The notes beneath the pieces are model-generated. The model was not told the origin of the DNA and made no database searches. It saw nothing but the letters and a program-made list of their open reading frames with translations. A program made the position numbers and the translations under genes. A DNA stretch of 64,000 bases from Spirochaetota bacterium (GTDB lineage Bacteria > Spirochaetota > UBA4802 > JAFGDQ01): positions 23,617-87,616 of the forward strand of contig JAFGDQ010000066.1 in assembly GCA_016932015.1 (NCBI GenBank), in the 5' to 3' direction. Below, piece by piece: positions 44,732-47,620 of this stretch (position 1 is its first letter; each line of letters starts with the position of its first letter).

Positions 44732-47620
44732 ATGAGCTTAATAAGTGAAAAAAACGCGAAAGAGATAGTTACTCTTGTAAATGAAAAATCACTGTCATGT
44801 GAGGAACTGCTGAATGACTGTTTCAGCCAGATTGAGAAATATGATCCTGTGCTTGAAAGCTTTATTTCTTTATATGATAAAGAGACACTTGTAAAAGAGG
44901 CAAGGGAGAGCGACAGCAGGCGGTCAAAAAACGCACAATTGAGCGCTATTGACGGGATTCCTCTTGCTGTTAAAGATAATATCCATTCACAAGGCATACC
45001 TACAACATGCGCTTCCAGAATACTTGAAAATTATAATCCTCCTTATGATGCTACTGCCGTAAGTCTCATTAAAAACAGCGGCGGTATTATACTCGGTAAG
45101 ACCAATATGGATGAATTTGCCATGGGGTCAACATGCGAGCATTCAAGCATGTGCCATACACGGAATCCGTGGGACATTCACCGTGTACCGGGCGGCTCAT
45201 CTGGCGGGTCTGCGGTTGCTGTTTCGGCTGGCATGACTCCGTTTGCTCTCGGAAGCGATACAGGCGGGTCTATTCGTCAGCCTGCGGCTTTCTGCGGAGT
45301 AACAGGTTTAAAACCGACATACGGGCTTGTCTCACGCTACGGGCTTGTAGCATATGCTTCATCGCTTGACCAGATAGGACCAATGTCACGTGACGTTTAC
45401 GGAAACGCGCTGCTGCTGAATATAATAAGCGGTTATGATGTGAATGACTCCACATCGCTTAACCATGAAAAGACAGATTATACTGCAAAACTCGGACAGG
45501 ACATAAAAGGAAAGCGCATAGCTGTTTTCAGGGAGCTTTTAAAAGAGGGAATTTCTCCACAGGTAATGAGAGAATTTGAGAAATCTCTTAAAGTATTAAA
45601 AGAGCAGGGCGCATTAATAGAGGAAGTTTCTTTTGAAGCAGTCAGGTATGTGATCGCAGCGTATTATTTTATTGCATGCGCGGAAGCATGCTCAAATCTT
45701 TCCAGATACGACGGCGTGAAATACGGATTCAGAAGCGGAAAACAGACAGATTATCAGGAAATGCTTTTCACAACGCGTTCCTACGGATTCGGCAAGGAAG
45801 TAAAGAAAAGAATTCTTCTTGGAAACTTTGTCCTTTCCTCAGGTTATTATGATGAGTATTACAGAAAAGCGCAGAAAGTCAGAACACTGATAAGAGATGA
45901 ACTTAAAAAGATTTTTGAAACTGCTGATGTAATTGCCATGCCGACAACTCCTGATATTGCTTTTAAGCATGGAGAGAGCAGCCTTGATCCTATGAGGATG
46001 TATCTTTCTGATATTACAACTGTTATACCGAATCTTTCCGGCCTGCCTGCCATCAGCATTCCGTGCGGCATGGCTGACGGTATGCCTGTAGGGCTTCAGT
46101 TCATAGGCAAACCGCTCGATGAGCAGATGCTGCTGCAGGCGGCATCAATTTACGAAAGCAGCAGAAAAGAAAAATATATTCCTGAGCTTGATCATATTCT
46201 GGATGAGAATGTACCGGGTAAACCGCATTCGGATTCACAGAAGAAAGATGTTTCAGTAAAAGCCTCTGTTTACACTATGAAGGATGTTAAGAAGATTTCC
46301 GAAACCTACTCGGAAAGAACATCTAAAAAGAGCAGAGTATACTGCAGGGACCTTGATTCAAAAGAAGGAAAGAAAGTAACTCTGGGCGGCTGGATTCACA
46401 GCAAAAGAAATCTCGGCGGAATTGATTTTTATATACTCAGGGATAAAACAGGATTTACACAGCTTGTACTTGAAGGCGAAAAGCCGATAGAAAAGCTGAA
46501 CCTTGAAACTGTAGTTGAGGTTTACGGCCGCGTTACAAAAGAAAAACGCAGCCCGTATAGAAATATAGAAATTAAAGTTGAAAAGCTGGATATACTCGGC
46601 CATGCGGAAAGCAGTCTGCCGTTAAATATCAACAGCAGTCTTGAAAATATTAATTTACCGACAATACTCGACAACAGAACCGTATCGGTAAGAAATCCTG
46701 AAATACAGTCAGTTTTCAGGCTGCAGTCAAAAATAGTTAAGCATTTTTCGGATTATCTGAGAGACAATGATTTTACCGAGATAAAGACTCCGAAGATAGT
46801 TTCAAGCGGTGCAGAGGGCGGCACTAATATTTTCGAGCTTAAGTACTTTGACCGCTCAGCTTATCTTGCGCAGTCCCCGCAGTTTTACAAGCAGATCATG
46901 GTGGGCAGCGGCATGGAAAGAGTATTTGAGGTCGGGCCTGTGTTCAGGGCTGAACATCATGATACTGTGCGTCATTTAAATGAATACACCAGCATGGATT
47001 TTGAAATGGGATTCATTGAGAATGAGCAGGATGTCATAGACATGCAGGAAGCTCTGATAAAATATATTTTTAAAAATCTAAAGAATGATTTTAAAGGGGA
47101 CGCAGGGTATAAGAACATGTCATTTGATGTTCCCAAAAAATTCCCGCGCATACATTTTCTTGAAGCTATGGAGATTCTGTCATCGCTCGGCGTAAGGGAT
47201 ATGGAGGAAGGAGATATTTCCCCGGCAGGTGAAAAAGCGTTATGTGACTATTTCGAGGAGAAGGAAAATTCTTCCTTTGTTTATGTCGTAGGCTACCCTG
47301 TAAAGAAAAGGCCTATGTATACAATGCCTGATGAAAGGCTGCCCGGTTATACCAGAAGCTTTGACCTTTTATATAAGGGAATTGAAATAACAACAGGCGG
47401 GCAGCGCATTCACGATTATCATCAGCTCAGGGATAACATTGTGGATTTCGGTTTTAATCCGAGAGAGTTTAAAGATTATCTTGATATATTTAAGTACGGA
47501 ATGACCCCGCACGGCGGTCTTGGAATGGGGCTTGAAAGGCTTACAATGAAAATAATGAATCTTAAAAACATCAGGGAAGCAGCACTGTTCCCTAGAGATA
47601 TAAACAGGCTTACGCCTTAA
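44732..47620 (+). CDS. gatA-aspS: fusion protein: Glu/Asp-tRNA amidotransferase subunit A (GatA) + archaeal-type aspartyl-tRNA synthetase
   Basis: Residues ~1-485 carry the amidase signature [14 protein letters not shown]...[25 protein letters not shown]. After a ~45-aa linker come an OB-fold ([23 protein letters not shown]) and class II motifs [15 protein letters not shown] and [15 protein letters not shown]...[10 protein letters not shown]. Single uninterrupted 962-codon ORF. Confidence 0.85.
   Translation: [962 protein letters not shown]

Follow-up and report, generated by a model that had tools for sequence, protein, structure and literature searches.

A 64,000-nucleotide stretch of a Spirochaetota genome (contig JAFGDQ010000066.1 of assembly GCA_016932015.1, forward-strand positions 23,617 to 87,616), hereafter called the window, carries a gene, gatA~aspS, in which a complete GatA is joined in frame to an archaeal-type aspartyl-tRNA synthetase (AspRS). 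The gene that follows it, gatC~gatB, is itself a fusion, of a GatC-like segment and GatB, so that a complete transamidosome appears to be encoded as two polypeptides. We consider it likely that the locus is a two-gene operon for a pre-assembled, two-chain asparagine transamidosome. A first-pass annotation of the window had noticed the gatA~aspS fusion but overlooked the adjacent gatC~gatB fusion, and thus saw half of the system.

The gatA~aspS gene and its two enzymes

An ATG codon opens the gatA~aspS open reading frame (ORF), which runs for 962 amino acids (aa) with no internal stop (Table 1). The first-pass annotation had described it as one 962-codon ORF carrying two enzymes, in agreement with the ORF list and with the translation, in which all of the motifs that it quoted are found. 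Pfam recognizes an Amidase domain at aa 25-468 (1.4e-152), an OB-fold tRNA_anti-codon domain (PF01336) at aa 549-622, and a tRNA-synt_2 domain (PF00152) at aa 644-956 (2.7e-89). Among solved structures, no PDB chain spans both halves of this protein.

As the window derives from a contig of a metagenome-assembled genome (MAG), a collapsed stop, a frameshift or a chimeric join in that one contig could have produced such a reading frame. In light of the following results, we regard this possibility as negligible. A homology search returned about 68 full-length GatA~AspRS clusters (941-1011 residues, 56-100% identity) from NCBI, JGI, ENA and Logan assemblies, each of them combining Amidase, OB and class II domains. 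A junction-specific alignment (A2), run against a single genome for each GTDB species, showed the junction to be uninterrupted and in frame in 36 genomes, 35 of them Spirochaetota MAGs and the other the complete chromosome of Candidatus Uabimicrobium amorphum, an isolate whose fusion protein has an identical copy in a second assembly. The fusion-bearing contigs include some of 4.8 Mb, 1.7 Mb and 0.8 Mb, and tblastn gave a single in-frame alignment of about 960 aa in approximately 34 of the 36 genomes. These genomes come from many projects and assemblers, the linker length and motifs are conserved among them, and the GC content is even along the whole gene. Since the in-frame junction recurs across independent genomes, an artefact is excluded for the family. 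Thus, the collinear GatA-AspRS ORFs that the first-pass annotation proposed to seek in related genomes are present, and a stop or frameshift between the halves, which it regarded as evidence against a fusion, was seen at the junction in none of the 36. In a separate observation, the Logan assembly of run SRR13394437 includes a 15.7-kb contig (L041) whose guaA product is identical to that of the window, with the same neighboring genes; raw reads covering the gatA~aspS junction might be obtained from this run.

The first-pass annotation had assigned approximately the first 485 aa to a complete GatA, and this assignment holds for aa 1-477. The NCBIfam gatA model TIGR00132 matches aa 15-476 with 606 bits (cut-off, 481), and this half aligns with residues 6-475 of the 485-residue GatA of Staphylococcus aureus. 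Compared with the solved GatA chains, it scores 424 bits against that of Thermus thermophilus (3KFU_E) and 444 bits against that of Pseudomonas aeruginosa (4WJ3_A); the predicted model superimposes on them with template-modelling (TM) scores, normalised to the target, of 0.92 and 0.93, respectively. The residues of the Ser-cisSer-Lys triad, K81, S156 and S180, are invariant in all 43 of the fusion proteins in alignment A1, which is the source of the GatA~AspRS conservation counts given below.

The remainder of the protein was claimed to be an archaeal-type AspRS, and every model applied to it favors that identification. The aspartate--tRNA(Asn) ligase model NF003483 matches aa 533-962 with 559 bits (cut-off, 353), and TIGR00458 gives 443 bits (cut-off, 368). 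The bacterial aspS models reach 205-212 bits, below their cut-offs of 374-443. The half is collinear from end to end with archaeal-type enzymes of 422-438 aa (1B8A, 3NEL and 1N9W), including the AspRS of Thermococcus kodakarensis and, at 348 bits, T. thermophilus AspRS2, the enzyme of the 3KFU transamidosome. The catalytic core carries EIKTPKI (motif 1), QSPQFYKQ, FRAE (motif 2) and GGLGMGLER (motif 3), and in the family EIKTPKI, QSPQxYKQ, FRAE and GGLGxGLER are invariant. We also considered whether the C-terminal half might be an asparaginyl-tRNA synthetase (AsnRS), and rejected this: the asnS models score 245-253 bits, under their cut-offs of 343-414, and the AspRS-specific QSPQFYKQ stands where the true AsnRS of the clade has SGQLEGE.

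Two positions of the anticodon-binding domain bear on the tRNA specificity of the enzyme. In the alignment, W26 and K85 of T. kodakarensis AspRS correspond to H556 and P608 of the fusion protein. His and Pro occupy both positions in the non-discriminating (ND) enzymes, T. thermophilus AspRS2 and the Sulfolobus tokodaii AspRS, as opposed to Trp and Lys in the discriminating enzyme of T. kodakarensis. According to what Feng et al. 2003 (PNAS) and Charron et al. 2003 (EMBO J) reportedly found, these two positions decide whether tRNA(Asn) is accepted. Dual charging rests on the anticodon-binding domain (PMC9976931). Within the family, His is present at position 556 in 38/43 proteins and Pro at 608 in 37/43. 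The sequence thus points to an AspRS of the archaeal, non-discriminating kind, which would be expected to charge tRNA(Asn). The complete OB-fold with ND-type residues also disposes of the suggestion that this half could be a paralogue lacking tRNA-binding determinants. With the uninterrupted junction and the AspRS identity of the C-terminal half, none of the outcomes that the first-pass annotation had seen as fatal to its fusion interpretation was observed, and that interpretation is supported.

The two enzymes are separated by a linker, which had been described as Lys/Ser-rich and located at about nt 46170-46330. We find it at 46163-46333, and its composition is borne out both in the window and for the family (S, 11.5%; K, 11.3%). 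From its N-terminus, it consists of a conserved 'FIPxL' element (including P484), a variable core predicted to be disordered, and a conserved helix. In the AlphaFold2 (AF2) model, the predicted local distance difference test score (pLDDT) is below 50 for residues 496-513, and a helix is predicted at 516-525, coinciding with the conserved motif at aa 514-529 (Y514 in 37/43 proteins, I519 in 40/43, S523 in 41/43 and Y526 in 41/43). The length of the linker varies from 53 to 67 residues (median, 59) and is 57-62 in 38/43 sequences. Going by the model and by this conservation, the motif is a candidate docking helix. The linker has no PDB homologue, and no counterpart of the motif was found in any solved AspRS, AsnRS or GatA. 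A likeness to the N-terminal helices of eukaryotic AspRS was considered and could not be substantiated. An internal start yielding free AspRS was considered as well; there is no conserved Met (M516 is present in only 3/43 proteins), and free AspRS is therefore not expected from the same message. A supposed contact of G444 of mycobacterial GatA with AspRS was dropped, as the paper in question has GatC as the partner.

The gatC~gatB fusion, the operon and its distribution

The gatC~gatB gene begins 21 nt past the end of gatA~aspS. Its N-terminal 95 residues match the whole Pfam GatC profile with 33.7 bits (cut-off, 23), and TIGR00135 gives 43.5 bits, which is below its cut-off of 47.1. This segment has a conserved C-terminal VP motif, with P92 and P93 invariant, and AF2 predicts helices at residues 9-43 and a strand at 88-91; these features are consistent with GatC. 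A short linker follows, with pLDDT values under 50 at residues 96-105; the stretch between P93 and E117, both of which are invariant, measures 20-25 residues (median, 23). The rest is a complete GatB (NF004014, 640 bits with a cut-off of 414), with Pfam GatB_N at 119-406 and GatB_Yqey at 445-589. About 95 GatC~GatB clusters were found, in the same Spirochaetota lineage and in two Uabimicrobium genomes; the next proteins in the match list are standalone GatB proteins of about 475 residues from other phyla.

Table 1. Features of the fusion operon and of its asparagine-related neighbors. Positions are those of the window unless a locus is named.
Feature	Position (nt)	Strand	Description or basis
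gatA~aspS fusion gene	44732..47620	+	962 codons plus stop; NCBI protein MBN2040605.1, labelled only 'GatA'
GatA glutaminase domain, aa 1-477	44732..46162	+	TIGR00132, PDB alignment, triad
Ser-cisSer-Lys triad	K81, 44972-44974; S156, 45197-45199; S180, 45269-45271	+	homology with GGSSGGS/GSDTGGS signature
Inter-enzyme linker, aa 478-534	46163..46333	+	57 residues; conservation dip 0.33-0.40, pLDDT
Amphipathic linker motif, aa 514-529	46271..46318	+	Y-[ST]-x-[ED]-x-I-x-x-[IV]-S-x-S-Y-x-N-R
OB-fold anticodon-binding domain, aa 535-625	46334..46606	+	PF01336 at aa 549-622; R535 invariant
Putative non-discriminating-type residues	H556, 46397-46399; P608, 46553-46555	+	alignment to archaeal-type AspRS
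AspRS class II catalytic core, aa 644-962	46661..47617	+	PF00152 (2.7e-89); no GAD insertion
gatC~gatB fusion gene	47642..49414	+	590 codons plus stop; MBN2040606.1, labelled only 'GatB'
GatC-like segment, aa 1-95	47642..47926	+	Pfam GatC; ends in conserved 'SYLVPPQ'
GatC-GatB linker, aa 96-115	47927..47986	+	variable, acidic, predicted disordered
GatB, aa 116-590	47987..49411	+	cradle (catalytic) domain and YqeY tail domain
AsnA-like gene	43291-44526	-	411 aa; MBN2040604.1 (hypothetical); class II core without anticodon-binding domain
AT-rich divergent intergenic region	44527..44731	.	between AsnA-like gene and fusion gene; presumed operon promoter region
Canonical asnS, L024	3290-4672	-	adjacent to fusion
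Canonical asnS, L019	5287-6696	+	adjacent to fusion
Canonical asnS, L040	6001-7386		on same 4.8 Mb contig as fusion

Over 36 loci, the conserved neighbors are GatA~AspRS itself (36/36) and GatC~GatB directly downstream (28/36), and no third conserved neighbor gene was found across them. The loci that lack an adjacent gatC~gatB either lie at contig ends or belong to a gut/rumen subclade. Judged from the sequences, the unit is a conserved two-gene operon that would supply the four proteins of a transamidosome as two chains.

The region upstream of gatA~aspS contains several sigma-70-like matches on the + strand, between 44534 and 44711, which are consensus matches only and carry no evidence of function. 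There is no obvious Shine-Dalgarno sequence of the GGAGG type at either operon start. A heptamer, AATCCGG, is located upstream of both operon ATGs, at a distance of 6 nt in one case (window 44720-44734) and 9 nt in the other (47625-47644); it could be a chance occurrence or a lineage-specific ribosome-binding signal.

The GatA~AspRS fusion apparently originated a single time. When 1.84 billion representatives at 50% identity were scanned exhaustively with HMMER, the fusion was recovered as one full-length representative and four junction-spanning fragments; the rest of the best 150 matches were standalone GatA or AspRS proteins, the nearest free AspRS among them being 49% identical. An independent fusion family would have ranked near the top of such a scan, which argues for a single origin. 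The pairwise identities of the two halves are correlated (r = 0.92), and so the gene evolves as one unit. The Uabimicrobium sequences have the same operon and form a long-branch sister group of all the spirochaete ones, with 53-63% identity; the simplest explanation of this placement would be that the entire module was transferred from one phylum to another. A mobile-element context was looked for and rejected, as the flanks consist of housekeeping genes. Going by the record titles, the habitats of the carriers are sediments, groundwater, digesters and guts, none of them thermal.

Other fusions of Gat subunits were encountered in metagenomes, namely GatA proteins of about 560-590 aa with a GatC Pfam domain (P0084, P0089, P0095, P0098, P0102 and P0106) and GatA-like proteins of 570-587 aa with a GatB_N match (P0112 and P0116). 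Permutations of this kind thus seem to be commoner than annotation suggests.

Asparagine context and the proposed function of the two-chain system

The genes around the operon are relevant to its possible role. The first-pass annotation implied that a genome with this fusion should lack asnS. This expectation fails in the relatives, at least three of the fusion-bearing genomes having a canonical AsnRS: its gene neighbors the fusion in L019 and L024 (670-684 bits; cut-off, 414), and a further one is present on the 4.8-Mb contig that carries the L004 fusion. Since AsnRS coexists with the fusion in these relatives, the fusion does not generally provide the only way of making Asn-tRNA(Asn). Most probably, by analogy with Deinococcus and Thermus, the role of the system is tRNA-dependent asparagine synthesis or a second route to Asn-tRNA. 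In those bacteria, an extra archaeal-type ND-AspRS and GatCAB make asparagine despite the presence of AsnRS (PMC4206432).

Divergent from gatA~aspS in the window is a gene for an AsnA-like protein with homologues in L001, L002, L024 (4688-6022), L028 and L040 (4633-5868). This protein is distantly related to archaeal AsnA (NF005054, 129 bits with a cut-off of 309; Pyrococcus AsnA, 1NNH and 3P8T, 52 bits), and it has apparently kept the motif 2 Arg/Glu and the motif 3 Arg. The gene is found either divergent beside the fusion operon (5 genomes, 72-81% identity) or directly beside asnS (L024 and L040), a placement that suggests a link to asparagine metabolism. The order of genes in L024, asnS, the AsnA-like gene, and then, divergently, gatA~aspS and gatC~gatB, amounts to an asparagine-themed cluster.

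This neighborhood could also be taken to mean that the fusion is a tRNA-independent, glutamine-dependent asparagine synthetase, in which the AspRS-like half would adenylate free aspartate and GatA would provide the ammonia directly. Class II cores of the AspRS/AsnRS type gave rise to archaeal AsnA (1NNH, 3P8T), and an AsnA-like paralogue is located next door. However, enzymes of the AsnA type have no anticodon-binding domain (PMC4206432), whereas the OB-fold of the fusion is complete and conserved; the aspartate--tRNA(Asn) ligase score is above its cut-off; and the constant partner is GatC~GatB, the sole known substrate of which is aminoacyl-tRNA. We therefore think it very unlikely that the fusion functions without tRNA.

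The two-chain transamidosome that we favor may be pictured as follows. One chain would comprise GatA and an archaeal-type ND-AspRS, connected by a linker of about 59 residues with a conserved length, and the other GatC and GatB, connected by about 23 residues. Class II synthetases dimerise, and dimerisation of the AspRS halves would give a (GatA~AspRS)2(GatC~GatB)2 particle. The AspRS half would aspartylate tRNA(Asn), and the acceptor end would then move to the GatB site, where the aspartate would be phosphorylated and then amidated, with glutamine hydrolysis in GatA as the source of ammonia. The tether would fix a 1:1:1:1 stoichiometry, would keep the synthetase by the amidotransferase without tRNA-dependent assembly, and would limit the escape of mischarged Asp-tRNA(Asn); it might thereby allow channelling, and it might stabilise GatA, as the first-pass annotation proposed. 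This reading is supported by the co-distribution of both fusions, the constrained linker lengths, the existence of a single fusion family, and the invariance of the active-site residues.

Alternatively, both fusions might be a neutral, 'Rosetta stone' type of merger of adjacent operon genes, with an AspRS half that is the housekeeping, and perhaps the only, AspRS of the cell, a GatCAB that also serves tRNA(Gln), and a passive linker. Such a merger would be compatible with the variable, disordered core of the linker and with the results of a search for a bacterial-type AspRS: over the window and about 600 kb of loci, tblastn with the L039 query matched nothing beyond the fused AspRS itself (about 27% identity). 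Other Gat fusions are also known, including GatC-GatA architectures and a mutational gatC-gatA fusion (PMC7541841). A neutral merger would nevertheless have to account for two separate fusions being kept together in two phyla, and for two linkers of constrained length, one of them with a conserved helix. Moreover, the archaeal-type AspRS of the bacteria that have been studied is an additional, ND enzyme (PMC4206432), and, on the precedent of ErdS, fusions of this kind tie up tRNA and require another, free AspRS (PMC13219428). For these reasons, we regard a neutral merger as rather improbable.

Several observations weigh against the two-chain transamidosome. First, in the AF2 model, the two halves of GatA~AspRS have no fixed mutual arrangement (predicted TM score, 0.56). 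Second, His556, one of the two residues that reportedly mark non-discrimination, is replaced by Tyr in a subclade (P0055, P0056, P0059, P0061 and P0062). Third, six loci (L007, L008, L012, L013, L017 and L030) have no adjacent gatC~gatB. Fourth, the product of the AsnA-like gene may already be a source of free asparagine, and the case for a role in asparagine biosynthesis would then be weaker. Fifth, scans of the window and 35 loci gave no tRNA genes; bacterial GatCAB requires a U1-A72 pair in tRNA(Asn) (PMC9976931, PMC4206432). Finally, it would be harder to see why GatCAB should be tethered permanently to AspRS if it must act on tRNA(Gln) as well (PMC3367201). Concerning this last point, the two-chain model predicts that the carriers have a GlnRS, or else that Glu-tRNA(Gln) is a further substrate of the fused particle.

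Some further details of these exceptions and of the surroundings of the operon were recorded. The Tyr556 subclade is monophyletic and includes L019, and in it the W-I-H of the OB-fold has become S/C/T-I-Y (A1 reference positions 555-556). Several of the six loci lacking an adjacent gatC~gatB are from gut, rumen or faecal MAGs; the downstream sequence searched was 1.4 kb for L013 and 3-7 kb for the other five, and the partner is either elsewhere or absent. Pfam annotation of 20 large ORFs of the window gave ordinary chromosomal genes and no other aminoacyl-tRNA synthetase. Beyond the AsnA-like gene lies a 413-aa putative lipoprotein (41882-43123, - strand) that has no Pfam match and includes repeated modules, for example '...SWNSVSNADWYAIFRG...' and '...ISWNHYGDAAYIKIYRG...'. 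In one subclade, related proteins with repeats (518-670 aa) are found close to the operon, at L003 (12577-14421) and at five further loci. Another ORF of the window (24162-25520, - strand; 452 aa) has weak matches to FolD (THF_DHG_CYH, 47.8 bits; THF_DHG_CYH_C, 52 bits); it is presumably much longer than a typical FolD, and we take it to be a divergent or extended relative.

Comparison with known transamidosomes and fusions

The first-pass annotation did not recognize the architecture as described, and our literature search agrees: neither a GatA-AspRS fusion nor a natural GatC-GatB fusion was found in 7.7 million PMC papers and bioRxiv, a scope outside which most subscription-journal papers fall. 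Both fusions sit in public databases under routine names, and because these are simply 'GatA' and 'GatB', automated pathway reconstructions miss an AspRS and a GatC.

The transamidosome is the usual example of how substrate channelling safeguards the genetic code and, to our knowledge, is non-covalent and tRNA-assembled in every case studied. The system described here would be a covalent version of the Asn-transamidosome. We would give an even chance to a broader interpretation, namely that here, for the first time, an aminoacyl-tRNA synthetase is seen to be naturally and covalently joined to its tRNA-dependent amidotransferase, in a self-contained, two-chain factory in which tethers replace both tRNA-dependent assembly and scaffold tRNAs and GatCAB is committed to asparagine, and that the module was passed on as a whole between Spirochaetota and the Planctomycetota-related Uabimicrobium. 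A lineage hard-wired in this manner would provide independent evolutionary evidence that the proximity of ND-AspRS and GatCAB is selected. It would also offer a naturally stable, stoichiometrically defined particle from organisms of non-thermal habitats, suited to cryo-electron microscopy and kinetics, and a comparison of fused and split versions could measure the share of channelling in fidelity and in asparagine supply. One of the carriers, Candidatus Uabimicrobium amorphum, has a named strain and a completely sequenced genome, which may open the way to in vivo work.

The T. thermophilus Asn-transamidosome (3KFU, 1N9W) has the same set of enzymes and the same type of AspRS. However, it consists of four separate polypeptides held together by tRNA, whereas the fusion system is covalent, with AspRS monomer and amidotransferase forced into a 1:1 ratio; in addition, the carriers of the fusion are from non-thermal habitats. 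The T. thermophilus archaeal-type particle is stable through the catalytic cycle and relies on non-substrate scaffold tRNAs, and it has been argued that transamidosomes are dynamic where GatCAB is shared with GluRS (PMC3367201). The Asn-transamidosomes of P. aeruginosa (4WJ3), mycobacteria and Helicobacter pylori share their chemistry and partners with the fusion system, but they use a bacterial-type AspRS with a GAD insertion and are non-covalent and tRNA-dependent (PMC8406222), that of H. pylori being dynamic (PMC3367201). Free GatCAB and ND-AspRS associate only with tRNA(Asn), and the stabilised complex raises fidelity (PMC8406222). With the Deinococcus/Thermus arrangement of AsnRS, GlnRS, GatCAB and ND-AspRS, the carriers have in common AsnRS, GatCAB and an archaeal-type AspRS of the apparent ND type; unlike in that arrangement, the enzymes of the carriers are fused, and an AsnA-like paralogue is present.

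Fusions involving parts of these systems have been reported before. The gatC-gatA fusion of Mycobacterium smegmatis is mutational and causes mistranslation (PMC7541841). In Deinococcus, a GlnRS carries a GatB-like YqeY domain (PMC1865053). Both cases show that covalent fusion is tolerated by subunits and domains of the indirect pathway, but neither links a whole synthetase with a whole amidotransferase subunit. A parallel in design is ErdS, the fungal ergosteryl-aspartate synthase (AspRS plus a DUF2156 aminoacyl-tRNA transferase), in which an AspRS is likewise fused to an enzyme that consumes its product and the bound tRNA serves as a swinging arm between the two sites; fungi with ErdS keep a second, free AspRS (PMC13219428), as is shown for them and only predicted for the carriers of the gatA~aspS fusion. 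The partner enzyme is C-terminal in ErdS, whereas GatA is N-terminal in the fusion described here, and ErdS is eukaryotic and yields a lipid rather than Asn-tRNA.

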